The notes under the pieces: model-generated
The model's database searches: none
Told to the model about the DNA's origin: nothing
The model's input: only the letters and a program-made list of their open reading frames with translations
Position numbers and translations under genes: made by a program
IMG/VR virus record: IMGVR_UViG_3300002180_000019
Span: 1-47,285 of that record
Length of the DNA stretch: 47,285 nucleotides
DNA from: a virus
Lineage: Duplodnaviria > Caudoviricetes
Direction: 5' to 3' (one strand)
Shown: positions 152 through 47,050 of the stretch, piece by piece
How positions within the stretch are numbered: the stretch's first letter is position 1
Layout: each line of letters opens with the position of its first letter

Positions 152-170
152 AGAAAAGTCAAAAATTGAC
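152..170 (+). repeat. Dispersed 19-bp motif, copy 1
   Basis: AGAAAAGTCAAAAATTGAC. Confidence 0.85.
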
Positions 171-173
171 GTC

Positions 174-238
174 CCAGAAAAGTCAAACCGAACATGGCGG
201 AAATGGGGCGTCCGGTCATTACACGTTACACGGTTCAC
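174..238 (+). repeat. Arm of imperfect ~65-bp inverted repeat (partner 47087-47152)
   Basis: AGAAAAGTCAAAccGAAcATGG...CATTACAcgTTACACGGTtCAC aligns with the reverse complement of 47087-47152. Confidence 0.8.
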
Positions 239-283
239 ATTATACGATTCACATTACATAATTACATAACTGTATAATAACTA

Positions 284-312
284 TTGACACGCTGTTAAAA
301 ATGTGGTATCAT
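284..312 (+). promoter_or_regulatory. Sigma70/SigA-type early promoter
   Basis: TTGACA-17 bp-TATCAT with TGTG extended -10, followed by AAAGGAG RBS and the gene at 331. Confidence 0.8.
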
Positions 313-330
313 GTTTATATATGAAAGGAG

Positions 331-606
331 GTGAATTTAATGAGAGATGAAAGAGGACTTGCAGAACATATAAATGGGATTGTTAATACTTTTGATTTGA
401 TAGAAGATGAACATAGAAAGTATATCAATCGAGTACGTAAACATTTCCTTTCAACATTTGATTTTGATTATCATAAGTATACTCTTAAAGAATTTGATAA
501 GAAATTTGATGAAGCTTTCGGACCGCCTTTTAGAACATCTCTTGGAGATTTCAAAACTATTTTTAGATCTTATCTTCTGAGTTTAATTAAATTAAAGGGA
601 GAATAA
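331..606 (+). CDS. Hypothetical protein
   Basis: ORF with strong RBS after the promoter; GTG at 331 or ATG at 340. Confidence 0.7.
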   Translation: MNLMRDERGLAEHINGIVNTFDLIEDEHRKYINRVRKHFLSTFDFDYHKYTLKEFDKKFDEAFGPPFRTSLGDFKTIFRSYLLSLIKLKGE

Positions 607-611
607 AAAAG

Positions 612-809
612 ATGAAAAAAGATAGGTATTATAACATCGTAACTTTTATGGCCCAAACAGAGAATAATCCCAAACTTTCATGGGAAGAGTGTAAGTTTCT
701 AGCCAGGAAATGGTTTATCAAGGCAGGATTTAAAGGTGTGAATTATAGACTTTTAAAGAAATCTTGGAAAGAATTCTCCAAGGCTTCGGGAGTTAAAGTA
801 TTTATCTAA
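612..809 (+). CDS. Hypothetical basic protein
   Basis: GGAG RBS, packed in operon. Confidence 0.7.
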   Translation: MKKDRYYNIVTFMAQTENNPKLSWEECKFLARKWFIKAGFKGVNYRLLKKSWKEFSKASGVKVFI

Positions 810-838
810 ATCTGGCAAGGCCAGAAAGGAGAAGGAAA

Positions 839-1123
839 ATGACTAAGGTGAATAAGATAATTAAAGAGATTAAAGAAAAAAAGGAAATGAATAGAAAACT
901 TATAGTCAAGGCACTTATTTTTAATCTTATACGTGAGGAAAAAGACAAAGATCTAAAATCTTATATTCAAAATCTCCGAAAAATTTTCATAGAAACTTTC
1001 TTCTCAAACTTTGATTTTAAGACTCTATCTAAAGAGAGACTCAAAGTACTTGAAGAAGCCTTTGAAAAAGCTCTTGATAAAACACTTGAAGTCACACTTA
1101 AAGATCTAATTCCTTTAATCTAA
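839..1123 (+). CDS. Hypothetical protein
   Basis: AAAGGAG RBS. Confidence 0.7.
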   Translation: MTKVNKIIKEIKEKKEMNRKLIVKALIFNLIREEKDKDLKSYIQNLRKIFIETFFSNFDFKTLSKERLKVLEEAFEKALDKTLEVTLKDLIPLI

Positions 1124-1141
1124 AAAGAAAGGAGAAAGAAA

Positions 1142-1354
1142 ATGTTAGAAGATTTGGCTAAAGCAATATTAAAGGCTGCTAAAATGCGTGAGGATTCATA
1201 TAATAAAAGAAAAAGAAAATATACAACCTCTCTTTTAGATTGTTGCAATACAGCAACTAAAAGTGTGAATGGAAATTTAAAAGATGCCAAAATAGTATAT
1301 ACTCTTCTTGCACTTGGTTGGAATGATGCTATTGACTGGGCAGAACAATATTAA
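1142..1354 (+). CDS. Hypothetical protein
   Basis: AAAGGAG RBS. Confidence 0.7.
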   Translation: MLEDLAKAILKAAKMREDSYNKRKRKYTTSLLDCCNTATKSVNGNLKDAKIVYTLLALGWNDAIDWAEQY

Positions 1355-1369
1355 AAAAGGAGATAAAAA

Positions 1370-1561
1370 ATGTTAATCAAAAACCTTATCAAAGAACTTC
1401 AAGAGGAAGAAGACCAAGATAAAAGAGTAATCATTGGCATATCAGGAAATGATGAAGAAGGGATAATCTACTATGGAATCAGCATGGTAGCAAATATAGA
1501 TGGTAACTGTATAATTTTTGACAGTATCCGTACAAGTCTTGAAAAGAAGGAGGAAAAATGA
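1370..1561 (+). CDS. Hypothetical protein
   Basis: AAGGAG RBS; ATGA overlap with the next gene. Confidence 0.7.
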   Translation: MLIKNLIKELQEEEDQDKRVIIGISGNDEEGIIYYGISMVANIDGNCIIFDSIRTSLEKKEEK

Positions 1562-1947
1562 AAACTATATCTGACAAATGCGAAGCCATAAAGTTTGTAC
1601 TACACCCAGAATCAGAAAATCAAATTGAGCTAGAAGATTGGCTGCGACAGGAAGCTCCTTCTATTACACAGACAGAACTCCAACATATAATCAAGTGTAT
1701 AAAGAGTATAGTCGCAGACATCTTTGAGATACACTCTGCAGGACACTTCGGCAGAGCTGTCATAGCCAATGATTTTATTTCAGCAGTCTTAAGAGCAGAT
1801 GAAATAAATGTACGCTATCTGCGTCTTTATGCTAGGTTTTTAGTAAACTATGTTGCTATAGGAAAGCTAGCACAGATATTTGCATTAACAGATCCATTAG
1901 TTACTATTATAAAGTCAATCATATCCCTACCAGAAAAGGAGATTTAA
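1558..1947 (+). CDS. Hypothetical phage protein
   Basis: AGGAGG RBS; GxFxxAVxxNDxxxAVxRADxxN pattern that I recall from small phage proteins. Confidence 0.7.
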   Translation: MKTISDKCEAIKFVLHPESENQIELEDWLRQEAPSITQTELQHIIKCIKSIVADIFEIHSAGHFGRAVIANDFISAVLRADEINVRYLRLYARFLVNYVAIGKLAQIFALTDPLVTIIKSIISLPEKEI

Positions 1948-1949
1948 AG

Positions 1950-2273
1950 ATGGCAAGATATATGTGTGGCTTTAGAACTACAGATCCAACTTTCTGGAAT
2001 ACAGTAAAAGAACACACAGAAAGATTTCCAGAAATCCAACCATTTCTCCCAACAAAAATAAGAAAGTTTAGAACAAAAAAAGAATGCCTTGCCCAGATAG
2101 GCTGTCCTATGGTAAACTGCAGGGATTGTAAAATTCCAGATCATCTCAAGAAATATCAGTGGGTTTACAGTGATCCACAAGAGTTTAATCTAATCAAGAA
2201 GGCTCATAAACAATCTTTAATAGAAGAAGATATAGTTCTTTGGAAGGAGAAGAAAAATGAAGACACTTTTTAA
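1950..2273 (+). CDS. Hypothetical Cys-rich protein
   Basis: AAAGGAG RBS; C-x5-C-x4-CxxC cluster. Confidence 0.7.
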   Translation: MARYMCGFRTTDPTFWNTVKEHTERFPEIQPFLPTKIRKFRTKKECLAQIGCPMVNCRDCKIPDHLKKYQWVYSDPQEFNLIKKAHKQSLIEEDIVLWKEKKNEDTF

Positions 2274-2418
2274 ATTAGAGAAAGAATGTAAACATTCCAG
2301 ATGATACTCTTCAATAGATGATAAATTTCCTATTGATACAATCTATGTAAAAAGAGAGTTTTCTAACGAAAAAGATGAGATTGTAGTTTCCTTGGAGAAA
2401 AGAAATGATAAGGAATAA
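2257..2418 (+). pseudogene. 53-codon ORF interrupted by in-frame TGA at 2302-2304
   Basis: AAGGAG RBS; reads MKTLFKLEKECKHSR*YSSIDDKFPIDTIYVKREFSNEKDEIVVSLEKRNDKE and fills the gap between neighbours. Confidence 0.6.
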
Positions 2419-2500
2419 TTGGGAAGATCCTAATTATATACTTATGTGGGTTTTATATCTGGTATTTCTAATCTTTATGGACAGGTTTTTATTAGGATGA
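2405..2500 (+). CDS. Small membrane peptide (31 aa), not in the ORF track
   Basis: GGAG RBS; MIRNNWEDPNYILMWVLYLVFLIFMDRFLLG. Confidence 0.55.
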   Translation: MIRNNWEDPNYILMWVLYLVFLIFMDRFLLG

Positions 2501-2514
2501 AAGGAAATAATAAT

Positions 2515-2868
2515 ATGAATAAAAATGTCAGATGTATTCCATTTGTCGGTATTAAAAACGCTTATATGGTTATTTCTGGTTATAAGGAAGAAACAGGCAA
2601 TGGCGTTAAAAAGTGTATGTCATTTTTCTATGACAACGGTGATATAGGTGCAGAATGGGAGCCAGACAATGGGCCAATTACTGTCATTTATAAGTGCAAC
2701 AAAGCTCATGAAAAGGCAGAGAAACATTGGTTCTATGATTATTGCACAGGGTATGGGAACTGGTCACAGTTAGCTGTTGAGTCTGAAGGATTACCGAATG
2801 CATTTTTAACTGGGGCTTATGACTATTTATTTGCAGTCTTAAAAAAATGGGCTAGTAATCAAACCTAA
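2515..2868 (+). CDS. Hypothetical protein
   Basis: Start moved from 2446 to the ATG at 2515, after an AAAGGA RBS. Confidence 0.65.
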   Translation: MNKNVRCIPFVGIKNAYMVISGYKEETGNGVKKCMSFFYDNGDIGAEWEPDNGPITVIYKCNKAHEKAEKHWFYDYCTGYGNWSQLAVESEGLPNAFLTGAYDYLFAVLKKWASNQT

Positions 2869-2885
2869 TGCTAAAGGAGATTAAA

Positions 2886-3098: not shown

Positions 3099-3100
3099 AA

Positions 3101-5669: not shown

Positions 5670-5849
5670 ATGAATAACTTAGATAAAATAGTAAAACTAT
5701 TATATGAGGAAGTTAAGATCAAACATGAGAAAAATCCACAGCTAAATCAAATCTCAATAATGTATTCTATTTTTAAAATTCTTGATAGAAAGTGGTCTGA
5801 TATGATGTCGAAAGAGAGATTTCCTAAGAAACGTCAAAAATCGACCTAG
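5670..5849 (+). CDS. Hypothetical protein (59 aa), not in the ORF track
   Basis: Open frame MNNLDKIVKLLYEE...KKRQKST filling the gap. Confidence 0.6.
   Translation: MNNLDKIVKLLYEEVKIKHEKNPQLNQISIMYSIFKILDRKWSDMMSKERFPKKRQKST
5827..5845 (+). repeat. Dispersed 19-bp motif, copy 2
   Basis: AGAAACGTCAAAAATCGAC, just before a stop codon and RBS. Confidence 0.85.
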
Positions 5850-7045: not shown

Positions 7046-7291
7046 TTGAAAAAGGACTTGCACATACTATTGCACAAGGAAATAAAAGAGACTGTAGCTA
7101 TCCTTGCGGTTAAGGAAGATTGCTCTATTAGTGAGCTTATAAGTAGAGCAATTCAGGCCTATAAAATATTTTTAAGCGGAAAGGAGGTAGATGGAAAAGA
7201 CACAGACGAGGCAGTAGAGTTAACAGAAAATAGTTCAAATTTAAAAAAGGAGAAGAAAGATGGCAAAAAGAAAGTTAGAAAAAGAGATTAA
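7046..7291 (+). CDS. Ribbon-helix-helix (CopG/Arc-like) DNA-binding protein
   Basis: TTG start after GAGGAG; KDLHILL (strand), KEIKETVAILAVKEDCSISELISRAI (two helices). Confidence 0.7.
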   Translation: MKKDLHILLHKEIKETVAILAVKEDCSISELISRAIQAYKIFLSGKEVDGKDTDEAVELTENSSNLKKEKKDGKKKVRKRD

Positions 7292-7622
7292 TGGCAGTGT
7301 TGTTACTTTCAAGGAAGTTATAACTGGAAAAACTCTAAGTTATGATTTTGCAAAGCTTCCGAAGGAAATTCAATCTAAGTTTGGTCCTTTTGGCTTAGGG
7401 CATAAGCTTGGCGATTCAGCCGCTGGTAGGAAAGGTCAAGAGGCTGTTGATGCTATTTCAAAAGTATGGAAGGGATTGATGGAAAGTAACTGGAGTGTAA
7501 GAGCACCTGCAGCTCCGAAGCTGTCCAAGAAAGATTTGGTTGACAAAATCAGTGGGATGTCAGAGAAAGAGGCAAAAGCCGCCAAAGACTTACTGAGCAA
7601 ACTTGGCATAGCTGTAGACTAG
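7260..7622 (+). CDS. Hypothetical basic protein, paralog of 46336-46821
   Basis: FGLGHKLGDS...VWKGLMESNW vs YGLKQKLSDS...VYNRLKEGKW. Confidence 0.8.
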   Translation: MAKRKLEKEINGSVVTFKEVITGKTLSYDFAKLPKEIQSKFGPFGLGHKLGDSAAGRKGQEAVDAISKVWKGLMESNWSVRAPAAPKLSKKDLVDKISGMSEKEAKAAKDLLSKLGIAVD

Positions 7623-8684: not shown

Positions 8685-9064
8685 TGATATTAAAAGAAAC
8701 GTCAAAAATCGACACGGTTTCTGGTGTAATATACTTAGCTAGTCCTTACTATAGTAGCTCTGCTAAGGTTAGAGCTATTAGAGCAATAGAAGCTACAGCT
8801 GCTGTAGAGGAGCTTATAATAAGAGGTATCAATGTATTTTCTCCTATTGCATATCTACATCCAATAGCTCAAAAATATAATCTTGCTTTAGGATTTGAAT
8901 CATGGAAGCATTTTGATCTAACATTACTCAAGGCCTGCTCGCTACTTGCTGTTCTAATGCTCCCAGGTTGGAGAGATTCTGTTGGAGTTACAGCAGAAAT
9001 AAAAGAAGCAACCAGATTTAAAATCCCTATAGAATATATCTTTCATGAGGAGAACTTATCATGA
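8684..9064 (+). CDS. DUF1937 / nucleoside 2-deoxyribosyltransferase-like protein
   Basis: IYLASPY, VFSPI, D..LL..C, PGWRDSVGVTAEI; ATG 8684 overlaps the upstream TAA. Confidence 0.75.
   Translation: MILKETSKIDTVSGVIYLASPYYSSSAKVRAIRAIEATAAVEELIIRGINVFSPIAYLHPIAQKYNLALGFESWKHFDLTLLKACSLLAVLMLPGWRDSVGVTAEIKEATRFKIPIEYIFHEENLS
8695..8713 (+). repeat. Dispersed 19-bp motif, copy 3
   Basis: AGAAACGTCAAAAATCGAC, in the first codons of the gene. Confidence 0.85.
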
Positions 9065-9324: not shown

Positions 9325-10033
9325 AGATGTTTCAATAGATACAGAGTGTTTCAAGGTTATGCTAGTAGGAACTTATGGAACTGGGAAGAGTATGTTCGCA
9401 AGCTCATGTCCAACTCCAGGATTTGTTTTTGACTTCGATGATGGAATAGTTCTCTATCGAGGGTTTGACTTTGATTATGAGCAGTATGAAAAAACCTGGA
9501 GAGGATGGATTAAGTTTGAAAAAGATCTTATCCAAGTAAAGAAAGATGTTACAGAGGGTAAATATAATACTGTCATAGTTGATTCAACTTCAGTAATGAC
9601 TGATCTTGCTATGGAAAGGGCAATGCAACTTGATCCCAAGCGATCACCTACAGACGGCCCGATCTGGAATATTCATTACATGATGGTTCGTCATCTAATG
9701 GAAGGTAGACTTCGACAGCTTATAGACCTTTCTTGTAATGTTGTTTTTATCTGTCATACAAATATTATAAAGGATGAAGAGTCTGGAGCCATTATTGACA
9801 TCACACCTTTATTAACAGGTCAACTTGTCGAAAAGATACCTGGATATTTTGACGAAGTTTACTATGCCACAACCAGGAGAGTTAACAATAAGACTCAGTG
9901 GCTCTTACAAACTGTGCCAATAGGGCACAAAAAAGCTCGAAGTCGGCTTAGCGGAAAGGAGGGATTATTACCAGACTTCGTACCTAATGATTATAATAAG
10001 ATTATAAAACAACTTAACAAAAAAGGAAAATGA
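9311..10033 (+). CDS. Sak4-like (AAA_24) ssDNA-annealing ATPase
   Basis: Walker A GTYGTGKS, Walker B VIVDS, VVFICH, GYFDEV, KARSR; lies between an exonuclease and an SSB-like gene. Confidence 0.8.
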   Translation: MPNAKDVSIDTECFKVMLVGTYGTGKSMFASSCPTPGFVFDFDDGIVLYRGFDFDYEQYEKTWRGWIKFEKDLIQVKKDVTEGKYNTVIVDSTSVMTDLAMERAMQLDPKRSPTDGPIWNIHYMMVRHLMEGRLRQLIDLSCNVVFICHTNIIKDEESGAIIDITPLLTGQLVEKIPGYFDEVYYATTRRVNNKTQWLLQTVPIGHKKARSRLSGKEGLLPDFVPNDYNKIIKQLNKKGK

Positions 10034-10892: not shown

Positions 10893-11141
10893 ATGAGTAT
10901 TAATGATAATGGAAATCATCCAGTTGTTCCTTTTCCAGACAAAAAGATAAATGTCAACTTGGATGACTGTGAAAATGTAAAGTGTGAAGATTGTGAAAGT
11001 GATGAATTTGAGATAGTTTGGATTTTAAAAAAGATTTCTGCTGTTTTATCAACCACTGGAAAACCAGAGCTTTTAACACTTGAGTATTTTAAATGTAAGT
11101 TTTGTGGAAAGAGGTTAAATATTATAAGGAGAAACAGATGA
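10893..11141 (+). CDS. Zn-ribbon protein
   Basis: CEDC...CKFCG; GGAGG RBS. Confidence 0.75.
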   Translation: MSINDNGNHPVVPFPDKKINVNLDDCENVKCEDCESDEFEIVWILKKISAVLSTTGKPELLTLEYFKCKFCGKRLNIIRRNR

Positions 11142-12451
11142 GTACGACTGAACATTCCGTATTTGAACTTGATCCAGGAGAGGTTAAAGTCAAAGACGGC
11201 CTCCCTCGCTATAGAAAAACTCTATCAAGTTTAACAGAGCTTCTCGAATCCTTTAAGAAGTTTGGGCAGCTTCAGCCAATAGTATTAAATCGTAATAAGG
11301 AACTTATAGCAGGTGGGCGAAGGCTGGGTGCTTGTATTTTAGGACAGAGAAAGGCTCTATGCATATATACAGATATGCTTGAGCCTATTAAAATGAGAGA
11401 GGCTGAAATTGAAGAGAATTTACAAAGAGAAGATTTGTCACCGGCAGATGAACTACTCGCTATAGCTGACTTGCACAAGCTTAAGCAAGAGCTATATGGA
11501 AAGGCTGAAAGTGGGAAAAAAGGGGGACATACTCTTGATAATACAGCTGCCTTAGTAGGAAAAACTAGAGGCGCAATTATAGATGATCTTCAACTTGCTA
11601 CAGCTGTAAAAGCTTTTCCAGAACTTAAAGATTGCAAGACAAAATCAGATATCCGTAAGGCAGTTAAGGCTGCTAATAAAGTAGTTGCTCATGCTGAAGC
11701 CGTTGAAGAATATGAGAGCCAGAAGGATGAAATAGGAGAGAATCCTACTCTACTGCTAAAAGATGCAAGAGATCATATGCCTACTGTACCAGATAAGTCT
11801 GTTGATATACTTGCAACTGATCCACCTTTTGGAATTGATATAGATAAAGTATTAATGGGAATGTCTGGTAAAACAGGCGGAAGATCTACTGCAGGGTTTA
11901 AGTTTGACGATGATATAGAAGAAGCTCTAGCATTATATAAAATTCTTGCAGAACAATCATACAGGTTTTGTACTGATAAAGCTCATGCTTATATCTTTGC
12001 AGCACCAGAGTTTTTTGATATAATCAGAAATATGTTTGTTGAAGCAGGATGGCTTTGCTCTATAAAGCCTATAATTTGGATTAAGGGATCATCAGGCCAG
12101 TGCCAAATGCCTTCTTATTGGCCATCATCCTGCTATGATATGATTTTATACTGTAGAAAGAGTGAGTCAAGATTGATTCTTGAGGGTAGACCAGATTGGA
12201 TTCAGTTTCCTCCTGTTCATTCTTCAGTTCGAATCCATCCTACAGAAAAACCTGTCCCTCTTTTTAAGGAGTTAATTTCCAGATGTGTTTATCCAAGTTC
12301 TATCCTATATGATCCTTTCATGGGAAGTGGTTCATCTATAGAAGCAGGACTTGATTTACATCTATTCTGCACCGGCTGTGATAACTTAGCGCCAGCATAT
12401 AATGCTGCTATTGCCAGGATATTAAAATGGAATAAGAAAAAGGAGAAATAA
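11138..12451 (+). CDS. ParB/Srx-like domain fused to a beta-class N6A/N4C DNA methyltransferase
   Basis: GQLQPIVL..LIAGGRRL..EENLQREDLS plus HTH; then TDPPFG, HPTEKPVPL, DPFMGSGSS; RBS supports ATG 11138. Confidence 0.88.
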   Translation: MSTTEHSVFELDPGEVKVKDGLPRYRKTLSSLTELLESFKKFGQLQPIVLNRNKELIAGGRRLGACILGQRKALCIYTDMLEPIKMREAEIEENLQREDLSPADELLAIADLHKLKQELYGKAESGKKGGHTLDNTAALVGKTRGAIIDDLQLATAVKAFPELKDCKTKSDIRKAVKAANKVVAHAEAVEEYESQKDEIGENPTLLLKDARDHMPTVPDKSVDILATDPPFGIDIDKVLMGMSGKTGGRSTAGFKFDDDIEEALALYKILAEQSYRFCTDKAHAYIFAAPEFFDIIRNMFVEAGWLCSIKPIIWIKGSSGQCQMPSYWPSSCYDMILYCRKSESRLILEGRPDWIQFPPVHSSVRIHPTEKPVPLFKELISRCVYPSSILYDPFMGSGSSIEAGLDLHLFCTGCDNLAPAYNAAIARILKWNKKKEK

Positions 12452-12452
12452 A

Positions 12453-14816
12453 ATTTTTGTAAAAACTGTTGGGCCGATAGATGCTAAGATGATGCTTGTA
12501 GGAGAAGCTCCTGGGAAAGAAGAGGATCAAACAGGATTACCTTTCAAAGGTCATGCTGGAGCTACACTAGACCGCTTGCTTGTCCAATCAAAAATATCTC
12601 GGCAAGAGTGTCTAATAGCCAACGTAGCTAGAGAAAAGCCCCCAGGGAATAATATATCTTATTACTTTAAAGACAAAAAATGCACTATTCCAAGACCTAA
12701 TTTAATTGAATGGATTGAGCTGCTCAAAAGAGAACTTCAAATGTATAAGCCTAACATTGTTGTAGCTTTAGGTGCTACAGCACTATGGGCTTTGACAGGC
12801 TTTAAAGGAATAAAAACATATCGAGGAGCTGTTATTGAATCAAGTCTAGTTCCTGGACAGAAAGTTCTTCCAACTTACCATCCACAAGCTGTAAGCTACG
12901 AGCCCTCACTTGCATTTACTACTATAATGGATTTACGAAAGGCACTATATCATCAAGGATTTGCTTACTTTCCAAAGGATAATAGAATCCTTGTAGACAA
13001 GCCAAGTAAAGAAACATGGATAGACTTTTGTAAATTACTTCTTGAAGATTTAGGCGATCCTATTGGAGTGGACATCGAAACAGCTAGAGGCGCACCTGGC
13101 TGCCATATTACCAGACTTGCTATTGCTGCTTCCAATGAGACAGGAATATCTCTTCCTATATTATCAGGAGACGCTCCTGCTTTTCCAGAGAGGGATGAGC
13201 TTGAACTTTGGAGATGGACAGGAAAAGTTCTCACAGAAAAACCTCTTGTATTTCATAATGCCTCTTTTGATGCAAGTGTTCTTTGGATGAATCACGGGAT
13301 TTTTTGCTTTAATAATATTTATATGGACACAATAATAGCTGCGCATTGCTGCTGGCCAGAGCTAGAATCTAATCTAGGTTATCTGGCCAGTATACTTCTT
13401 GACGTTCCTGCCTGGAAGCACGACAAAAGTTATCATGGCTTATATAATGCAGCTGATGCTGTTAACACACTAGCTCTTGTTCTTCCGCTTAAACAATACA
13501 TGAGGACACTGGATGTCGAAGACATAGTTGATAGAGTAACTGCTGAAATAGAGCCTGCTTCTATTCTTCAGCTTCAAGGATTATCTGTAGATATGGAGCT
13601 AAAAGATAAATTAGTTACACAAGGAAAATTGAATCTGGAGCAACTAGAACAAAAGCTTTATAAAACTATTGGAAGAGAAATCAATTATAATAGTCCTGAC
13701 CAAATAAAAAATTTACTGTATATTGAACTCGATCTTCCCCCGCAATTCAAGCGTCGAAAGAGTATCCATGAGGAGAGGAAACTAACAACTGATGAAGATG
13801 CTCTTAACAAGCTTGACCGCATAACAAATAATCCAGCACTAAAGTTAATCCTACAGTGCAGAAAACAAGCAAAAAGTCTTTCTAACTTCCTAGATATTAA
13901 GACATCTCCTAAAAACAAAGTCCATACTTCCTATAATATAACAGGAGCAGCCACAGGAAGATGGTCATCTAGCCAATCTATCATCCATCCATTTGGGCCA
14001 GGGAACCTTCAAAATATTCCAGAAGCTTCTCGTAGTTTATATGTTGCTAAAGAAGGTTATTCCATTGTAAGAGGAGATTATGTTCAAGCAGAAGCTGTTG
14101 TTACTGTTTTTCTATGTCTTGATACAGTTCTTATGAAAATGTTTAGAGAGTCTTTTGGAATGTCGCCTAGTCAACGAAAGAAATCTCATGATATACATAA
14201 ATATACAGCTAGTATAATGTACGAAATACCTATGGAAGCTGTTGCAGCTACGCAGAGAAGGGTAGGCAAAACAATTAGACATGCCTTAAACTATTCAGCA
14301 GGCCCGAAAGTTCTTGCCGCAGAGCTTAGTATTTCTGCAGCCCAAGCTAAGAAGCTTATCAAACTTTTCTTCAGTAAAAATCATCTTTTAACAGCCTGGC
14401 ATATGAGGATACAGAGACAACTTCAGCAAGATAAAACTTTGATAACACCTATGAAAAGAAAAAGAAGATTCTTATCAAGATGGGGAGATGATCTGTTCAG
14501 AAGTGCTTATGCATATATTCCCCAGTCAACTATAGGAGACTTACTCAACTTTGCGCTTGCGGAATTTTATTTCAAGTATGGAGATAAATACAGTTTATAC
14601 TGTCAACTTCATGATGCTCTTTATATTGAAGTAGAAGATTCCTTAATTGATCAAGCAATTCGAGACATGAGAAAGGTTATGCTTAAAGAAATTGTTATTG
14701 GTCAAGAACCTGTTACAATAGATGTAGACTTTGCAGTTGGAAAGAGTTGGGGAGAAATGAAAGAACTTGATATAGATTGGAGAAATGAAAATGAAACAAT
14801 TAAAGGTATAAAATGA
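12453..14816 (+). CDS. polA: Family A DNA polymerase with N-terminal family-4 uracil-DNA glycosylase domain and 3'-5' exonuclease
   Basis: UDG: VGEAPGKEE, PFKG, TYHP. Exo: DIET, HNASFD, YNAAD. Pol: TGRWSS, NLQN, DYVQAE, RxxxKxxxHxxxY, QLHD. Start placed at ATT 12453 (track start 12489). Confidence 0.92.
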   Translation: MFVKTVGPIDAKMMLVGEAPGKEEDQTGLPFKGHAGATLDRLLVQSKISRQECLIANVAREKPPGNNISYYFKDKKCTIPRPNLIEWIELLKRELQMYKPNIVVALGATALWALTGFKGIKTYRGAVIESSLVPGQKVLPTYHPQAVSYEPSLAFTTIMDLRKALYHQGFAYFPKDNRILVDKPSKETWIDFCKLLLEDLGDPIGVDIETARGAPGCHITRLAIAASNETGISLPILSGDAPAFPERDELELWRWTGKVLTEKPLVFHNASFDASVLWMNHGIFCFNNIYMDTIIAAHCCWPELESNLGYLASILLDVPAWKHDKSYHGLYNAADAVNTLALVLPLKQYMRTLDVEDIVDRVTAEIEPASILQLQGLSVDMELKDKLVTQGKLNLEQLEQKLYKTIGREINYNSPDQIKNLLYIELDLPPQFKRRKSIHEERKLTTDEDALNKLDRITNNPALKLILQCRKQAKSLSNFLDIKTSPKNKVHTSYNITGAATGRWSSSQSIIHPFGPGNLQNIPEASRSLYVAKEGYSIVRGDYVQAEAVVTVFLCLDTVLMKMFRESFGMSPSQRKKSHDIHKYTASIMYEIPMEAVAATQRRVGKTIRHALNYSAGPKVLAAELSISAAQAKKLIKLFFSKNHLLTAWHMRIQRQLQQDKTLITPMKRKRRFLSRWGDDLFRSAYAYIPQSTIGDLLNFALAEFYFKYGDKYSLYCQLHDALYIEVEDSLIDQAIRDMRKVMLKEIVIGQEPVTIDVDFAVGKSWGEMKELDIDWRNENETIKGIK

Positions 14817-16018
14817 GAGAATTAAATGACTGGCTTGATTCGTATATGCTATATATGGAGAATACTGAGTCAGCAAAGATATATCATAAATGGACATCTA
14901 TCTCTGTTATAGCTGCTGTTCTAAGAAAGAAGGTTCGGCTCTCGCTTGGCAGGATAAGAATATATCCTAATTTATATATTGTCCTTGTTGGGCCTCCAGG
15001 TGGGCCTCGCAAATCACAAGCAATTACTTTTGCTACAGAGTTCTTAGCCAATATACCAGATATCACCTACAGCGCTGATGCTACTACTCCTCAAGCTTTA
15101 GTACAAGATTTAGAGGGTAGTGCTGTGGATGAGCAAATGGCTGATGGATCAACATTTCGACATGCTTCTCTGACTATCATAAGCAAAGAGTTTGAAAGTT
15201 TTCTTGGGGCAAAAACAGAAAATACAAGAATGATAACATACTTAACTGATCTATATGATGCTCAAGAAGTACCCTGGAAATATAGAACAAAACACAGTGG
15301 CTCTAATATAATTCCATCAGTATTTTTAAATATGCAAGCTGCTACTACACCAGACAGCATTGCTAATACATTACCTACTACTGCTGTAGGGATGGGGCTG
15401 ACTTCCAGGATAACATATCTTTGGGCAACTGATAAATATAAACCTATAACCGCTCCAGTAGAGACACCAGAGGATATAGACCTAAGAGAAAAGTTAGCTA
15501 AGGATTTATATGTAATTAGCAGACTAGTAGGAGAGTATAAGTATGATAAAAAATGCTTTGTAGAATGGGATAAGTGGTATCAATCATATAGGGCTTTGTC
15601 TCCTAATCGAATCTGTCAAGACCCCACATTCGATGCTTGGTATCAAAGGAAGCCAAACACGGCACAAAAAATCTCCATAGTTTGCGCAGCAAGTAGATCT
15701 AATGAGTTTATAATTAAAACACAAGACATGGAAAGATCACTGTCACTTCTTGAGGAGGCTGAGGCCCAGATGGAGCATGTCTTCAGAGCTGTTGGACGAA
15801 GTACTATTGCAGTAGATGTAGCTCTCGTAGTAAATATTGTCAAAGCTAAAAAGTGGATTACAGAAAAACAACTTCTGTCTCTTGTCTGGCGAGATATTGA
15901 TTCTGGCAAATTTGATAATGTTATAGCTACAGCTACTAAAAGAGGATTAGTCAAGCGACTATATGTTGGCCCTAATGGGGAGAAAGGAGATATATGGTAT
16001 TATTATACTGGAAGATAG
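14813..16018 (+). CDS. P-loop helicase-like protein (DUF3987-like)
   Basis: NLYIVLVGPPGGPRKS Walker A variant, SKEFESFL, LTDLYD, GLTSR; directly follows the polymerase. Confidence 0.7.
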   Translation: MRELNDWLDSYMLYMENTESAKIYHKWTSISVIAAVLRKKVRLSLGRIRIYPNLYIVLVGPPGGPRKSQAITFATEFLANIPDITYSADATTPQALVQDLEGSAVDEQMADGSTFRHASLTIISKEFESFLGAKTENTRMITYLTDLYDAQEVPWKYRTKHSGSNIIPSVFLNMQAATTPDSIANTLPTTAVGMGLTSRITYLWATDKYKPITAPVETPEDIDLREKLAKDLYVISRLVGEYKYDKKCFVEWDKWYQSYRALSPNRICQDPTFDAWYQRKPNTAQKISIVCAASRSNEFIIKTQDMERSLSLLEEAEAQMEHVFRAVGRSTIAVDVALVVNIVKAKKWITEKQLLSLVWRDIDSGKFDNVIATATKRGLVKRLYVGPNGEKGDIWYYYTGR

Positions 16019-16027: not shown

Positions 16028-16046
16028 AGAAATGTCAAATTTTAAC
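16028..16046 (+). repeat. Dispersed 19-bp motif, copy 4
   Basis: AGAAATGTCAAATTTTAAC, intergenic before an RBS. Confidence 0.75.
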
Positions 16047-21976: not shown

Positions 21977-23950
21977 TTATCCTCCTATATACTCATGAAC
22001 AGCATGTGATTGAGTAGTACTTACGCTGTCTATTTCCTGTGTAACATGACTTGTGCTTGTAGATGATGATACTTGCTGATTATAAGATGAAGATGCTTGT
22101 GTTCCTTGATTAGCATTATATCCTATCGACGCACTTGCATTTACAGCACCCATCGAACTAGCCGCAAGCTGCGCAGATACATTTGCTCCTGACTTAATTG
22201 CATCAGCAAATATTGCTTGCGCTCCTAAATATCTTTCAATATTTAGTTTTGCTTCGCCAAGCAATAGATCAGTCTGATTCTTTGCCTGTTGTATCTTTGA
22301 ATCATAAGTCTTAATCTGAGCATCTAGTTCAACTTTAGCCACTGCAGTATCAGCTTCATATGCACCTACTTTATATCCATAAGTCTTAACAAGTGCTTCA
22401 ATCCTAGAGTTTTCCTTCAACACATTTGTCTTATAGCCTTCGACTTCAGCCAAGTAACTGTTTACTTTAGAATCATTTTCTTTTATTTGAGCTTCCATTT
22501 CTGCAATCAGCATGCTGGATTCAATCTTCTTAGCCTCAACCTGTCCGACGAAGGCTTTAACTTGATTATTATAAATGTCAACTTTTGACGCTTCTCCCAC
22601 TATCCTAGCTTGATATAAATTATATCCTGCTGTCTTCGCAGCTAGATTAGCAGAGTACGCTTCAATCTCAGTTTTAAAGTTCTCAATCTTTAGTCTTTCA
22701 AGACTTGCTCTAACACTAGCTCCCTCCATTTGAGTCTTATACATATTTAACAGGCTAGTTGCTGCATTTACCTGAGCATTATATACAGCTACATAGTGTC
22801 CTTGAACTTCAGCACTAATTTTTGCTCCCTCAAGTTGTGTTCGATACAGATTTAATTCAGAAGCTGCCGCTCTAATCTTTGACTCAAAGACAGCTGCCAT
22901 TGTTTTATATTTATCCAATCTGACATTATAACCTACTATCTTAATATTGTATATTTTAACAGCTGCCTCCACAACTTCCTTCGCAGCAAGAAACTGTCTA
23001 TCTGCAACAGTATTAGAATGAATCATTAACTGTTGTTCCATAGCAGCAGACGACTGGATAAAGAAATGAAGATTTGTTTGTGTAAGTCTAGCCTGTTCAA
23101 TCATAACCTTTTCATTTATATCATCATTCCTTCTTGATATCTCAGCCAATGTTTCTGAGATTCTTCCTGCTAAAGCTCCTGGAGGAAGAATGAATCCTTT
23201 TGCAGCAAAGAAGTTTTCAGCTTCATCATACATTCTTTCATCATCTATTTCCCTTCTTGCTACAGCTCTATCAAAGATAGCTTCTTCTACACTGACATCC
23301 AATCCTGTTCCACCTGCTTGAACATCATCCAATAGCTTTGCTGTAACAGCATCCAGAAGATCTGATTGATAGGGAGTCTCATTATAAATAAACATAGGTT
23401 CAGGCGGTGTAAGATCTTCTGTTGGAAGTACTCCATCAAACTGAGGCATTGTAATATCTGGAGGAGATGGAATAAGTATCTGATCTACAGTTGGTGGAAT
23501 AGGAAGTGTAATTGATGGAGCAGTAGGAACATCTATACTCTCTAAAGATGGAGCATCTCCTGGACTTGCTGGCAAATCAGTGTCTGGATAATCAGGAAAT
23601 GTTATCTCTGGAAGCACTCCTTCAAAGGATGGAACAGATGGAAGTGTTGCTAAGGTTATATCATTTAAGACTGGTATAGTAGGAATAGTTCCAACACTAG
23701 GAGTAAGAGCACTATCTACTGGAGCATTCGGTCTATGGCTTTCAATATCAGAATCTAATACAATCTCTTGAAAATCATAGTCTATATCTGCGCTAGGCAT
23801 TGAAGCTGTTAAACCACTAAATGATTGTTTTAAACTGTCAATAAAATTGTTTGCTGTAGTTATAGCAGCTGATCCATATGACTGAATCTCACCGAATCTA
23901 CTTTGAACAAGATCTTTAGCAGTTAAATCTGGGTCATAAAAAGTAGTCAT
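21977..23950 (-). CDS. Virion structural protein, Pro-rich N-terminus and long coiled coil
   Basis: PxxP-rich segment, then helical Ala/Tyr/Gln heptads and a Ser-rich tail. Confidence 0.6.
   Translation of the reverse strand: MTTFYDPDLTAKDLVQSRFGEIQSYGSAAITTANNFIDSLKQSFSGLTASMPSADIDYDFQEIVLDSDIESHRPNAPVDSALTPSVGTIPTIPVLNDITLATLPSVPSFEGVLPEITFPDYPDTDLPASPGDAPSLESIDVPTAPSITLPIPPTVDQILIPSPPDITMPQFDGVLPTEDLTPPEPMFIYNETPYQSDLLDAVTAKLLDDVQAGGTGLDVSVEEAIFDRAVARREIDDERMYDEAENFFAAKGFILPPGALAGRISETLAEISRRNDDINEKVMIEQARLTQTNLHFFIQSSAAMEQQLMIHSNTVADRQFLAAKEVVEAAVKIYNIKIVGYNVRLDKYKTMAAVFESKIRAAASELNLYRTQLEGAKISAEVQGHYVAVYNAQVNAATSLLNMYKTQMEGASVRASLERLKIENFKTEIEAYSANLAAKTAGYNLYQARIVGEASKVDIYNNQVKAFVGQVEAKKIESSMLIAEMEAQIKENDSKVNSYLAEVEGYKTNVLKENSRIEALVKTYGYKVGAYEADTAVAKVELDAQIKTYDSKIQQAKNQTDLLLGEAKLNIERYLGAQAIFADAIKSGANVSAQLAASSMGAVNASASIGYNANQGTQASSSYNQQVSSSTSTSHVTQEIDSVSTTQSHAVHEYIGG
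22571..22595. repeat. Degenerate intragenic copy of the 19-bp motif
   Basis: ATAAATGTCAACTTTTGACGCTTCT; about two mismatches to the consensus in either orientation. Confidence 0.45.
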
Positions 23951-25934: not shown

Positions 25935-25953
25935 AGAAACGTCAAATATTAAC
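25935..25953 (+). repeat. Dispersed 19-bp motif, copy 5
   Basis: AGAAACGTCAAATATTAAC plus ATGGTTGCTTA; fills the intergenic gap. Confidence 0.85.
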
Positions 25954-25961
25954 ATGGTTGC

Positions 25962-26339
25962 TTATGTCGGATCTTCTATCTCTATCTCCCATGCTGGGAT
26001 ACTAACCTTGTTTCCTGAAGTAAGCGCCTGTGATGCACAAGTAGTAACGTACAGAAGTTTGCTTGTGTCTCCATCAGATATAGCTATGTGAGTTGCTGTG
26101 TCCGATGCATCTATTGTTATCTCTGTTTGTTCATTTACTTGAATCTTCCTGCCACTTATATCTCCGTTTGCAGGAGAGCCAAAGTCTGCATCAGCTATAG
26201 TAACATCAGCTAACTTATATGTTGTAATAGCTTCTGTGTAAGTAGTCGGCTCTTGACTACATATAGTCATTATTGTCGCATCTTCCTTAATCTTATCCAA
26301 TGCTACATCTAATATATCATCATGAACACTCTTGCCCAT
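25962..26339 (-). CDS. Small tail/fibre-associated structural protein
   Basis: Acidic, beta-rich; TATHIAI.D pattern; GGAGG RBS. Confidence 0.5.
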   Translation of the reverse strand: MGKSVHDDILDVALDKIKEDATIMTICSQEPTTYTEAITTYKLADVTIADADFGSPANGDISGRKIQVNEQTEITIDASDTATHIAISDGDTSKLLYVTTCASQALTSGNKVSIPAWEIEIEDPT

Positions 26340-31190: not shown

Positions 31191-31209
31191 AGAAACGTCA
31201 AACATTAAC
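31191..31209 (+). repeat. Dispersed 19-bp motif, copy 6
   Basis: AGAAACGTCAAACATTAAC plus GTGGTTGCTTA; intergenic. Confidence 0.85.
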
Positions 31210-31217
31210 GTGGTTGC

Positions 31218-31631
31218 TTAATGCACCACAGCAAAACTTCCAAAGACTGTAAAAGTTCCAACTGTGGTAGCTCCATCATCATCACAAGTAAGCGTTATAA
31301 CACCACTTGCACTGTCGAAATACTTTCCATCCGCCCACACAGCACTTCCTGCAACAGAGGTTTTTAGCCCTACTAAAGTAGGATCACACTCCAAAGTAGT
31401 CATAAAAGCATCTGGATCTGCTGTATCTCCATTACCAATAAAGCCTATAGTAATAGTCGGAGCGCCTGCTCCAATAGAGTAGGCTGTCTCAATCCAAAGC
31501 CATAGTTGCTTTACAAAAGCAAACTTAGGTACACGAATCAGGTTGTATGTTCCATCTGTAGGCTCAATTAACTTTTTACTTCTGGCAAGGCGGATATTAT
31601 CTGAAAACGAATTTGTATAAAAATCAGCCAT
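31218..31631 (-). CDS. Putative capsid decoration/cement protein
   Basis: VPK.A.V...ETAY...TITIG...ADPDAF; directly after the capsid gene. Confidence 0.55.
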   Translation of the reverse strand: MADFYTNSFSDNIRLARSKKLIEPTDGTYNLIRVPKFAFVKQLWLWIETAYSIGAGAPTITIGFIGNGDTADPDAFMTTLECDPTLVGLKTSVAGSAVWADGKYFDSASGVITLTCDDDGATTVGTFTVFGSFAVVH

Positions 31632-35365: not shown

Positions 35366-35384
35366 AGAAACGTCAAAAATTGAC
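35366..35384 (+). repeat. Dispersed 19-bp motif, copy 7
   Basis: AGAAACGTCAAAAATTGAC, just upstream of the portal RBS. Confidence 0.88.
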
Positions 35385-44274: not shown

Positions 44275-44309
44275 CTTATCAGCCCTTTTCTTTTTCTATC
44301 CTTTTATCA

Positions 44310-44447: not shown

Positions 44448-44462
44448 CTATATCACCTCCTT

Positions 44463-44849
44463 TTAATAATGCTCTTTTATGGTTAAGTGGAAAATAGTCT
44501 CTCCGTACAATTTTTCTCTGAACTTTACAAATGTCTTTCCAGAGTTTAGAATAGCTCTATCTCCAGAGAGTTTTCCAATCTCGCTTCCTAAAAGGATGCA
44601 TCCTGCTGTATCATCTACTGTGTTTCCTGGATGGATCAAGATATCAGCCCTCCAAGGGACACTCATTAGTTTAAACACATCTCCGAAAGGCTTACATAGA
44701 TACTGTTGAGCAGGAATTGAGCTTCTGTTTTTCTTGTTAAGTAAATCCGAAAGCTCCAATGTCCAGCAGAATGCTTCTGCATCAATAAGGAGAACTCCAA
44801 AAGTTCCACTCTGGCTTTCTTCAACTCTAAGCAACCGAAGTGTCTTCAT
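44463..44849 (-). CDS. DUF5675-like putative endolysin (L,D-peptidase-like His/Cys motif)
   Basis: TFGVL, CWTLE, IPA..Y, VP.R..ILIHPGNT..DT.GCILLG; flanked by membrane genes. Confidence 0.75.
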   Translation of the reverse strand: MKTLRLLRVEESQSGTFGVLLIDAEAFCWTLELSDLLNKKNRSSIPAQQYLCKPFGDVFKLMSVPWRADILIHPGNTVDDTAGCILLGSEIGKLSGDRAILNSGKTFVKFREKLYGETIFHLTIKEHY

Positions 44850-44850
44850 A

Positions 44851-45123
44851 TTATCTTGTCCACCTTAGCCATCCTAGAAGACTTCCAAAGACAGCTGCGA
44901 TAGTAAGACCCACCCCACGAGCAATATGAAGTCTCATAGTATTGCATTTAACATCCTCTTTCAACCCGTTTAACGCATCTAGTTTAATTTTCACTTCTGC
45001 AAGTTCCTTTCCTTGAACACCTAGTTCATCAAATATCCTGCCTATACTATGTGACTGACGATTATAAGAATCTGCTATACTCTTTAAATGAATCTCCAGT
45101 ACTCCAAACTGACTATCATCCAC
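44851..45123 (-). CDS. Coiled-coil protein with C-terminal membrane anchor (holin/XhlA-like)
   Basis: GTG start; GVGLTIAAVFGSLLGWL hydrophobic tail. Confidence 0.55.
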   Translation of the reverse strand: MDDSQFGVLEIHLKSIADSYNRQSHSIGRIFDELGVQGKELAEVKIKLDALNGLKEDVKCNTMRLHIARGVGLTIAAVFGSLLGWLRWTR

Positions 45124-45147
45124 TTATTAAGCCTTTCTATCAAACCT

Positions 45148-45603
45148 TTATAACTTTGGTAAGTCGTCTGGACTGTCTTCATTTGCATCTAGACGTGCTT
45201 GCTCCTCTGGAGTTATATCAATAACTTCTTCCATGACTCCATCACGTTTTTCAAGCTGGACAAGATACCCTACAAGTCCTTTAATATCAGAAGGAAGACC
45301 TTCCATGACCTGCTCATTACTCTTAAGAGTTTTATACGTAAAAATTAAATCTTTCAGGGAAGCTTCTACGATTTTGTCTTCAGTTATAGCCTGGAGAATT
45401 TTGGCTTGCATTTCTGTGAGCTGAAGCGATTGAACAGCTCGATATTTTAAAAGGATTCCATGTTTCTGTTGGAGTTCTATGATCCTCTTTTTCAAAGTAG
45501 GAATAGAAACATCCAGAAGAGCTGCAGCTTCTGATTGTTTCAATCCCTGCTCTAGGACATCAAAAACTCTTTCAGGATCAAGCTCTTTGATAGGTCTACC
45601 CAT
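45148..45603 (-). CDS. terS: Putative terminase small subunit (HTH)
   Basis: MGRP start and HTH LKQSEAAALLDVSIPTLKKRI; upstream of terL; ATG 45603. Confidence 0.6.
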   Translation of the reverse strand: MGRPIKELDPERVFDVLEQGLKQSEAAALLDVSIPTLKKRIIELQQKHGILLKYRAVQSLQLTEMQAKILQAITEDKIVEASLKDLIFTYKTLKSNEQVMEGLPSDIKGLVGYLVQLEKRDGVMEEVIDITPEEQARLDANEDSPDDLPKL

Positions 45604-45616
45604 GTTTTGTTTCACC

Positions 45617-45635
45617 AGAAATGTCAAAAATTGAC
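45617..45635 (+). repeat. Dispersed 19-bp motif, copy 8
   Basis: AGAAATGTCAAAAATTGAC, intergenic. Confidence 0.88.
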
Positions 45636-45636
45636 A

Positions 45637-45960
45637 CTAAAAGGGTTTAGCAACTTTACCAGACTTCTTCAAAGCTTTTGGACTTTTAGACTCTAGCTTC
45701 ATCTGTTGAATCTGAATAGAGAGGCTCTTTCGAGGAGGATTATTATATCTTTCTGACATTGAAATCCTCTCTACTTTGCCCAGGGCAATGATACCAACTT
45801 TTGAGCCGATAGCAATCTTGCTAATATCTATCTTCAGTTTATCTATCTCTGGAGCATCAAGACTAATCTCAAGCCCATATGGGTAGGACTCTGAAGATTC
45901 GGCAGCAATCGGAGGAGAAGTCTTTTCCTTTGGTCTCTTTAAGTCTATTAAATTATTCAT
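45637..45960 (-). CDS. Capsid staple-like protein (epsilon15 gp10-like)
   Basis: YPYGLEISLD..EIDKL...G.KV...A.G.V...SLSIQI pattern. Confidence 0.55.
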   Translation of the reverse strand: MNNLIDLKRPKEKTSPPIAAESSESYPYGLEISLDAPEIDKLKIDISKIAIGSKVGIIALGKVERISMSERYNNPPRKSLSIQIQQMKLESKSPKALKKSGKVAKPF

Positions 45961-45966
45961 AGAGAT

Positions 45967-45995
45967 AGTATATCATGGTTGGCCGGGAATGTCAA
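45967..45995 (-). promoter_or_regulatory. Sigma70-type promoter of the late arm, probably leaderless
   Basis: Minus strand TTGACA-17 bp-TATACT, then 6 nt to ATG 45960; no SD sequence. Confidence 0.75.
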
Positions 45996-46007
45996 GGTGT
46001 TTTTTCC

Positions 46008-46021
46008 CGAACAAATGTTCG
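46008..46021. promoter_or_regulatory. GAAC-N4-GTTC palindrome (LexA/Cheo-box-like)
   Basis: CGAACAAATGTTCG, 12 bp upstream of the late -35; 13 of 14 identical to 7019-7032. Confidence 0.7.
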
Positions 46022-46102
46022 TATTCTTGTCTGGGCTTGTCCTTCAGGACTGGATTGAATTTTTTCTCGTGTGTAAAATGGGTGCTAGTCTTCTATAGGG
46101 CA

Positions 46103-46170
46103 AAGACCCCCCTTGGGGCTTGGGGGGGTATCTTGGTCATTATCGCCCCGCCTCCCCCCGTTCGCCTGGC
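46103..46170. other. GC-rich hairpin and C/G tracts in the divergent intergenic region
   Basis: ACCCCCC-TTGGGGCTTG-GGGGGGT followed by CGCCCCGCCTCCCCCCG in an AT-rich genome. Confidence 0.5.
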
Positions 46171-46209
46171 CGGTCCAGACACGTATTATAATGGTGATAC
46201 ATTTTTCGC

Positions 46210-46237
46210 TTGACATTATTATTTAATGTGGTATAAT
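46210..46237 (+). promoter_or_regulatory. Sigma70/SigA-type early promoter
   Basis: TTGACA-16 bp-TATAAT with TGTG extended -10; GAATACATGTTC at 46251-46262 just downstream. Confidence 0.8.
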
Positions 46238-46288
46238 GTGGACAATTAAAGAATACATGTTCATTAAAACTGTGTATTAAAAATGTTC

Positions 46289-46317
46289 ATTGAAAATTGA
46301 ATAAAGATGGATGTCCA
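46289..46317 (+). repeat. Left arm of 29-bp inverted repeat (partner 46843-46871)
   Basis: ATTGAAAATTGAATAAAGATGGATGTCCA; 26 of 29 complementary. Confidence 0.85.
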
Positions 46318-46335
46318 TAATAAGGAGACATTATT

Positions 46336-46821
46336 ATGGGTAAAAAAAGTGCGGCAAGTGAACAGATTATAGATGTACCAGCTATAGTCGAAACAAATCC
46401 AAATGAATCAAATTTAGTTGTAAGAGATTCAAAGCCACAGGTCCCTGGAAAGACTAGAATATCCTGGCGGATGACAAATACTAGTGCTATAGCTGAATTT
46501 AATGACATATTTAAGTCTAAACTTGAATTTAGTTTGACTGCATTATACGACAATTATAAACATTTGAATTTGATTCAAAGAACCATCATATTCTATGGCC
46601 TTAAACAAAAGTTATCCGATTCAATCGCTAGGCCCGATGATATGAAACTGACCGTGGAAGAGAAGGCAGAACAAATGAATCTGGTCTATAATCGATTAAA
46701 AGAGGGTAAATGGAATACCCAGGGCGAGGGTAAACAATCAATTAAAAAGAAAGCTGCGGAATTTGCAAAAACGGCAGACGAAAAGCAATTAGAGATGTTA
46801 AAAAAATTAGGTTTAATTTAA
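46336..46821 (+). CDS. Hypothetical protein, paralog of 7260-7622
   Basis: TAAGGAG RBS; YGLKQKLSDS...VYNRLKEGKWN...LKKLGL. Confidence 0.8.
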   Translation: MGKKSAASEQIIDVPAIVETNPNESNLVVRDSKPQVPGKTRISWRMTNTSAIAEFNDIFKSKLEFSLTALYDNYKHLNLIQRTIIFYGLKQKLSDSIARPDDMKLTVEEKAEQMNLVYNRLKEGKWNTQGEGKQSIKKKAAEFAKTADEKQLEMLKKLGLI

Positions 46822-46842
46822 TTTTAAATTTTAAATAAAATT

Positions 46843-46871
46843 TGGACATCCATTTTTATCCAGTTTTCAAT
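46843..46871 (-). repeat. Right arm of 29-bp inverted repeat
   Basis: TGGACATCCATTTTTATCCAGTTTTCAAT. Confidence 0.85.
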
Positions 46872-46892
46872 TCTATAAAAAGGAGAATATAA

Positions 46893-47030
46893 ATGAAACT
46901 AGATAAAAAGCTGGTTTATGAACTTAATATTGAAGTGGATAAAATGATGGACAAGTTTCATAAACTCCCAGTAGAAAAGCAAAAAAAGATTTATAAAATG
47001 ATAGCAAAGTGTTTTAAGCCACAAAAATAG
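46893..47030 (+). CDS. Small basic protein (45 aa), not in the ORF track
   Basis: AAAGGAG RBS; MKLDKKLVYELNIEVDKMMDKFHKLPVEKQKKIYKMIAKCFKPQK. Confidence 0.65.
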   Translation: MKLDKKLVYELNIEVDKMMDKFHKLPVEKQKKIYKMIAKCFKPQK

Positions 47031-47031
47031 T

Positions 47032-47050
47032 GTCAAAATTTGACGTTTCT
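47032..47050 (-). repeat. Dispersed 19-bp motif, copy 9 (the only clearly inverted copy)
   Basis: Reverse complement AGAAACGTCAAATTTTGAC. Confidence 0.85.

Follow-up and report, generated by a model that had tools for sequence, protein, structure and literature searches.

Dispersed palindromes in a podophage-like genome as candidate docking sites for the phage's own ParB-methyltransferase

Twelve OB sites are dispersed over the roughly 60 kb of plasmid RK2, and Noc sites are dispersed as well. The OB sites of KorB need not be near promoters, as stated in passages of PMC11790492, and passages of PMC9283540 describe the stoperators of mycobacteriophages as asymmetric 13-mers oriented with transcription. 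Fusions of a ParB-CTPase domain to an N6/N4 DNA methyltransferase are frequent in phages, and anti-defense roles have been guessed for them in the sections of PMC12704722 cited here; such fusions have so far come without a known target or mechanism. Here we analyze a 47,285-nucleotide stretch of phage DNA (the window; IMG/VR record IMGVR_UViG_3300002180_000019, Caudoviricetes) in which a palindromic element recurs at ten places, and we weigh whether it is the docking site of the phage's own ParB-helix-turn-helix (HTH)-methyltransferase. No paper linking ParB-N6/N4 methyltransferase fusions to dispersed sites was found in the open-access literature.

The element was first described from the letters of the window alone, as a 19-bp motif of fixed strand polarity. 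The pattern given in that sequence-only reading matched 11 times at 10 places, and every copy it had listed was recovered. The shuffle mean was 0.60, and when both strands were scanned, none of 100 shuffles scored as high. Eight matches are exact on the plus strand and one is exact on the minus strand (47032); the copy at 22571/22577 has one mismatch whichever strand is read. A scoring matrix trained on relatives alone was then run over the window and 10 shuffles. The same 10 places came out on top, at 17.5 to 30.3 bits, with the next best match at 11.8 bits and shuffle maxima of 5.5 to 20.5 bits, and no further copies in the window were found with this matrix.

On the plus strand, site 1 (152..170; exact, 23.8 bits) lies to the right of the poly-A/contig-end locus, site 2 (5827..5845) is at a gene junction immediately before a ribosome-binding site (RBS), site 3 (8695..8722) follows the PD-(D/E)XK nuclease gene in the full 28-bp form with its distal CT, and site 4 (16028..16046; exact) follows the DUF3987 gene. 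Site 4 is the weakest copy (17.5 bits) and is not safe taken alone, since shuffle maxima reach a higher score. Sites 6 (25935..25962) and 7 (31191..31218) are junction copies in the full 28-bp form with the same right flank, and sites 2 and 4 also share flanks. Site 8 (35366..35384) occupies the junction ahead of the portal gene and site 9 (45617..45635) the junction ahead of the TerS-like HTH gene. Two sites are assigned to the minus strand: site 5 (22571..22595), which lies within a 657-aa virion gene and is best read at 22577-22595 (25.0 bits), and site 10 (47032..47050; exact, 30.3 bits), to the left of the poly-A/contig-end locus. Only 1 of the 10 sites is deep within an open reading frame (ORF), and the junction location that had been proposed holds. 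The mean gap between window sites is 5.3 kb (evenness versus random junction placement, p = 0.053), and the distal CT of the full element is kept by three of them.

Forty-five related phage contigs were fetched whole. Among the first 21 relatives, 16 gave a GTCAA or GTTAA element directly and four (G004, G007, G008, and G022) gave variants; the unrelated contig G014, also in that set, had no element. The full family element is AG-N4-GTCAA-W3-TTGAC-N7-CT, about 28 bp, with a CT conserved 7 bp past the core. The 19-bp motif is thus real, but the element extends beyond it. Relatives carry 8 to 16 copies each, about 5 kb apart and mostly at gene junctions. Across 26 genomes, mean gaps ranged from 3.4 to 6.8 kb and spacing was more even than random junction placement (p < 0.05 in 13 genomes; below the median in 24). 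Of 289 sites, only 49 were deep in ORFs, which take up 63 to 75% of the sequence. Regardless of the core, the outer AG was retained in 415 of 428 sites, at a genome-specific offset of 11 to 16 bp from the center. In many genomes every site pairs a short arm with a long one (9/9 sites in G006, 14/14 in G018, 11/11 in G053), and symmetric arms were found in G036, G055, and G058 (short), G054 (long), and G007 (intermediate). Beta-class methyltransferase dimers work asymmetrically, and this could be the cause of the outer AG/CT asymmetry.

The arms of the palindrome do not covary: no excess pairing was detected at 12 offsets across 282 sites, and transversions made up 73 of the 120 mismatches in the core. 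The sites are therefore not hairpins, and a single-strand hairpin signal (N4-type promoter, ssi, or REP) was rejected on this ground. Likeness to CRISPR repeats, dif, attC, or REP was dropped on geometry, with no Rfam search made. Together with the even spacing, the junction preference, and the lack of a -35 role (see below), the arms that do not covary give a profile that fits double-stranded sites bound by a dimeric protein and positioned for coverage.

The sequence-only reading had a single inverted copy, with polarity flipping only beside the poly-A locus. Because the intragenic copy at 22571 also scores best on the minus strand, the window stands at eight plus and two minus (two-sided binomial p of about 0.11), and neither that claim nor fixed polarity holds. 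In 27 genomes, 135 sites were plus, 65 minus, and 31 symmetric, a 2:1 family bias. None of the 21 genomes with at least five oriented sites (window included) was uniform; 18 had a plus majority, 2 were tied, and 1 had a minus majority. The strict orientation filter undercounts G048-G050 and G054, and the genomes are not independent. Symmetric sites without polarity occur in G008, G022, G036, G044, G055, G058, and Desulfofustis phage MD01. What is conserved in relatives is the sites and not a fixed polarity. Orientation was indeed independent of transcription direction, with 42 plus and 24 minus sites in rightward regions and 58 plus and 25 minus in leftward regions (Fisher p = 0.48). Copying of sites between junctions could lie behind the bias, given the flanks shared by sites 6 and 7 and by sites 2 and 4.

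The putative site reader is a 437-aa protein encoded on the plus strand at 11138..12451, in which Pfam and TIGR matches and a predicted model identify a ParB-CTPase fold, an HTH, and a beta-class N6/N4 DNA methyltransferase. PF01555 scored above its cutoff and PF02195 below; TIGR00180 gave an E value of 6.8e-15 with a score of 55.3, below its cutoff of 58.45. Spo0J, ParB, and Noc chains were matched at E values of 1e-13 to 1e-9. The CTP-pocket motifs GGRR and EEN..R (Box II/III) are invariant in 93 homologues, as are methyltransferase residues D228-P229 and D392-P393-G396; among relatives, DPPY is variable at its third residue. The model has a pLDDT of 87.7, with HTH helices 133-140 and 144-159 at about 90. 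Its residues 7 to 180 align most closely with KorB (Z 9.2; root mean square deviation, 9.5), and alignment scores were Z 8.3 for Spo0J and Z 5.8 for the complex of the ParB DNA-binding domain with parS. The HTH was aligned to KorB, Spo0J, and 6s6h by structure, the sequence matches alone being weak, and it is preceded by a 14-residue insert. The methyltransferase part has the beta motif order and aligns with M.BceJIV at Z 26.4. In two related loci this part appears frameshifted (L543, 4741-5800) or interrupted (L587, 5557-6800), with ParB and HTH intact; these disruptions may be sequencing error or insertion.

One residue of this protein, R144 (codon 11567..11569, plus strand; R156 when counted from 11102), in the first turn of the recognition helix, covaries with the site core. 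Its column holds K or R in all 36 genomes whose core is GTCAA and in 4 of 11 genomes with other cores, the rest having H, G, P, E, E, S, and H. The resulting p of 5.2e-6 was the lowest among 3,679 columns from 11 proteins. No label permutation of 210 reached the R144 score; after one clade and near-duplicates were collapsed, 6 of 224 did, and R144 was still the top column. Variant cores, among them GTTAA, CGTAA, TTCAA, and GTAAA, arose on several lineages, with eight changes, four of them forced by well-supported branches. The test left out near-duplicates (G015, G020, G059, G060, and L341), genomes in which the gene was not in view (G008 and G028), those with a shifted core (G007, L431, MD01, and MW202554), and those with no confident site call (G046, G061, L348, L361, L362, L407, and L420). 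Loci outside the test mostly followed the same pattern: K or R accompanied GTCAA sites in L575, L588, L555, L552, L362/L571, and L385/L387, and residues other than K or R (I, E, I, and L) went with no GTCAA family in L407/L587, L416, L465, and L463.

The R144 column is part of a G-K-T-R motif that aligns with G170-K171-S172-R173 of Caulobacter ParB, and profile matches to the structure of that protein are weak but in register. Passages of PMC7383237 identify R173 as a specificity residue that bonds to a parS guanine. One turn past R144, residues 148-149 include Q or R in G010, G043, L577, G041, and G042, accompanying a C-to-T change in the core (GTTAA, TTTAA, or CGTAA). These residues are a possible second specificity position. 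Loading sites for the ParB-methyltransferase, one of several options originally listed, are the best-supported reading.

The element follows the replication module across phages. Six carriers of the sites have the same replication module and no homologue of the window capsid. These phages (G012, G015, G017, G018, G019, and G021) combine the window's replication module, TerS/TerL, and sites with an unrelated virion module, a gene content that speaks for module exchange within the phage family. Desulfofustis phage MD01, whose ParB-methyltransferase is 27% identical, has nine copies of a different 25-bp palindrome with the same 3-bp center, and MW202554, which has a different ParB fusion, has five or six dispersed palindromes. 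No dispersed palindrome family was found in six distant relatives lacking ParB (PaMx41, Tiera, Aeromonas P5, Kuura, vir526, and EBPR podovirus 3). Two of these carry repeats of other kinds. EBPR podovirus 3 has an identical 25-mer with a NotI site at 9403, 9437, 13818, 29055, and 38974, two copies being in genes annotated as broken, and this 25-mer is probably a library adaptor artifact. In vir526, a nonpalindromic motif of TCTGAC plus a G-run occurs five times (11251, 13929, 19280, 36609, and 42292).

We put at roughly 60% the probability that the ten palindromes are parS/OB-like docking sites for the phage's own ParB-HTH-methyltransferase, which would act as a sliding clamp that methylates nearby DNA. 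Very probably, the two HTHs of a dimer bind the two GTCAA half-sites of each palindrome. On the model of ParB and KorB, binding of a nucleoside triphosphate would close the clamp, which would then move off the site and slide, taking the methyltransferase across a few kilobases of flanking DNA; the methyltransferase domain would take the place of the ParB C-terminal dimerization domain, and methylation would be confined in cis to DNA bearing the sites. We judge these steps somewhat likelier than not. With sites every 5 kb or so and a clamp sliding a few kilobases, the whole genome would be tiled and methylation confined to phage DNA. In its most complete form, which we offer tentatively and at less than even odds, the proposal is of a self-addressed sliding methyltransferase: a CTP-gated clamp, its ring closed by a beta-class methyltransferase dimer, would load only at phage-specific sites, slide a few kilobases, and methylate only DNA carrying the address, with the outer AG/CT read asymmetrically by the enzyme dimer and the address recoded from phage to phage by one HTH residue.

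If docking at the palindromes is correct, the ParB-methyltransferase family gains a candidate cognate site, a specificity residue, and a set of natural residue/site variants as a test panel. If sliding is also true, it would be a new use of the CTP clamp, with an enzyme delivered in cis to one DNA molecule, and could become a programmable tool for regional methylation. The usual guess at a purpose is marking of self DNA against host restriction, which has no support from restriction-site avoidance.

Several observations weigh against this proposal. GATC, CATG, and CTAG are avoided as much as in controls, with no gradient with distance from the sites, and this unrelieved avoidance speaks against broad protection of adenines. 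According to passages of PMC12704722 and PMC13229309, a ParB fold fused to an enzyme is not necessarily a switch. The R144 pattern was spotted by eye before all columns were formally tested, the genomes compared are not independent of each other, and the family-wise p after collapsing is about 0.03. TerS, with three variant genomes only, and the 46336 protein stood outside the covariation test. K or R is kept despite a variant core in G043, G058, L411, and L447, and also in L543 and L577; it is present with no clear sites within 16 to 35 kb in L361/L599, L560, and G046, the site detector being insensitive on short loci. No clear site family was found in Mel-JY34, MW202489, or VS-ABTNL-3, which have a ParB-methyltransferase with a divergent HTH region. 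All 57 informative loci carry the gene, which leaves no natural loss to serve as a control. Finally, no ParB-methyltransferase column or linker length accounts for the outer AG offset and asymmetry or for the 2:1 strand bias.

The main rival keeps the same protein as the reader and drops the spreading methylation: the protein would be a KorB-like long-range repressor or roadblock, or would methylate locally (for example, at the outer AG/CT) as a switch. We consider this unlikely, though by some way the strongest of the alternatives. KorB is the closest fold for residues 7 to 180, and KorB silences promoters from distal OB sites, as described in passages of PMC11790492. The lack of restriction-site relief also favors this rival, as does retention of the outer AG whatever the core. 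In 16 of 25 genomes the ParB-methyltransferase gene has a site no more than 450 bp away, but this adjacency is not special, since TerS (16/23) and the nuclease gene (17/25) have similar values. Moreover, none of the five best sigma-70-like promoters in the scanned parts overlaps a site, and even tiling through long cotranscribed blocks fits coverage better than promoter control.

A stoperator-like system with another reader, namely, the TerS-like HTH protein (45148), the 7260 or 46336 protein, the ribbon-helix-helix (RHH) protein (6986), or a host regulator, is improbable. TerS-like and 7260 homologues are present in most relatives, the covariation data for TerS came from three variant genomes only, and the junction location resembles that of stoperators (passages of PMC9283540). 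However, the RHH protein, proposed earlier as a reader, has a homologue in none of 21 relatives and the 46336 protein in 10 of 21; TerS was not detected in site-bearing G044 or MD01, nor 7260 in MD01; and the best 7260 column (p = 1e-3) fell inside the permutation null. Orientation that ignores transcription also counts against a stoperator-like system, and a host protein would not readily account for cores that differ from genome to genome.

Marginally less probable still are dispersed centromeres, by which a nonintegrated phage genome would be partitioned or tethered via host ParA or SMC. Phage N15 has dispersed centromeres, and the ParB fold, HTH, and palindromic sites are what such a system would use. 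Against this, profile searches recognized no ParA or integrase among the 68 window ORFs, and the N terminus of the predicted ParB-methyltransferase model begins at the CTPase fold, with no room for a ParA-binding peptide. The related phage MD01 is predicted to be lytic in passages of PMC10370329.

Polar DNA signals, whether programmed nicks, packaging or ejection checkpoints, or single-strand priming hairpins, are very improbable. The excess of plus sites, in the same direction in both arms and with a plus majority in 18 of 21 genomes, is in their favor, and a 5-bp stem with a 3-nucleotide loop could form. Nonetheless, the mixed orientation in those 21 genomes and the symmetric sites in seven speak against the strand-nicking, checkpoint, and KOPS/Chi-like functions that had been suggested, the motif is common to phages with unrelated capsids, and the arms show no excess pairing. 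Least of all are the sites sigma-70 promoter -35 elements, a role suggested by the TTGAC within each arm and largely refuted because a -10-like hexamer, sought 16 to 18 bp downstream, follows 39 of 446 site TTGACs versus 223 of 2,628 others (8.7% versus 8.5%), in line with the original view that the site acts at the DNA level and is neither promoter nor RBS.

The window, a podophage-like contig, has ends that overlap at a poly-A tract. The one sequencing run that contains it, possibly its source, is a marine metagenome available as contigs, and no RNA run containing it was listed. Its rightward arm encodes the PD-(D/E)XK nuclease, Sak4, the ParB-methyltransferase, a UDG-PolA polymerase, and DUF3987, and its leftward arm encodes terminase, a P22-like portal, capsid, and virion proteins. 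The stand-alone DUF3987 protein (14813-16018) is labeled a primase in PHROGs and is conserved as far as PaP2/PaMx41-like phages; among the window ORFs, none was recognized as a further primase or a helicase. At the contig junction (47060-47285 plus 1-260), the poly-A tract lies between the arms of an imperfect, roughly 80-bp inverted repeat. Each arm contains the half-site AGAAAAGTCAAA and short repeats of the TTACAC type and adjoins one of the divergent sites at 47032 and 152. Poly-A/T tracts are present in several relatives, and the locus is a candidate origin or genome terminus. Strong sigma-70-like promoters were located at 284, 6972, 7603, and 46210 on the plus strand and 45995 on the minus strand, 45995 and 46210 being divergent; none overlaps a site. 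Two small proteins (7260-7622 and 46336-46821) match the same locus in G012 and G019 and are for that reason probably paralogues. The 7260 protein has homologues in 17 of 21 relatives and no family match, and its single-sequence fold is of low confidence (pLDDT 57.6). The match to prokaryotic genomes was one 10-kb contig in a metagenome-assembled genome of Acholeplasmataceae, which was not used as host evidence.

Among known systems, KorB/OB of plasmid RK2 shares a ParB-family CTPase with an HTH, and KorB loads at short palindromes and slides, as we propose by analogy for the phage protein. It differs in that the C-terminal part of the phage protein is a methyltransferase, the window has no ParA/IncC, the phage element spans 25 to 31 bp and includes an outer AG/CT pair, and the carrier resembles a lytic podophage. 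ParB-parS and Noc with its binding sites (NBS) share the CTP-pocket motifs, a recognition helix with G-K-S/T-R, and a probable switch of specificity at the R173 equivalent, whereas the phage protein is below the TIGR00180 cutoff and carries an insert before the HTH and a fused enzyme, and the phage site has a 13-bp core with a 3-bp center in place of a 16-bp palindrome. Unlike ParABS partition, the window offers no cognate ParA ATPase. The phage ParB-methyltransferase fusions surveyed in PMC12704722 have the same domain pair, and the passages of that survey cited here give no target sites or mechanism. Beta-class methyltransferases (M.BceJIV, MboIIA, CcrM, M1.HpyAVI, and EcoP15I Mod) share the fold (Z 21 to 26) and a DPPF before the S-adenosylmethionine-binding motif; the phage enzyme differs by its fusion to a ParB module predicted to read the sites. 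Mycobacteriophage stoperators are likewise present in many copies in short intergenic gaps across the phage genome, but the phage sites are palindromic and ignore transcription direction. KOPS/Chi and programmed nick sites differ in polarity, which is uniform in none of the 21 genomes with at least five oriented sites, and symmetric variants exist. Judged from sequence, the feature is akin to the ParB-parS/KorB-OB kind and not to a polar nicking or packaging signal.

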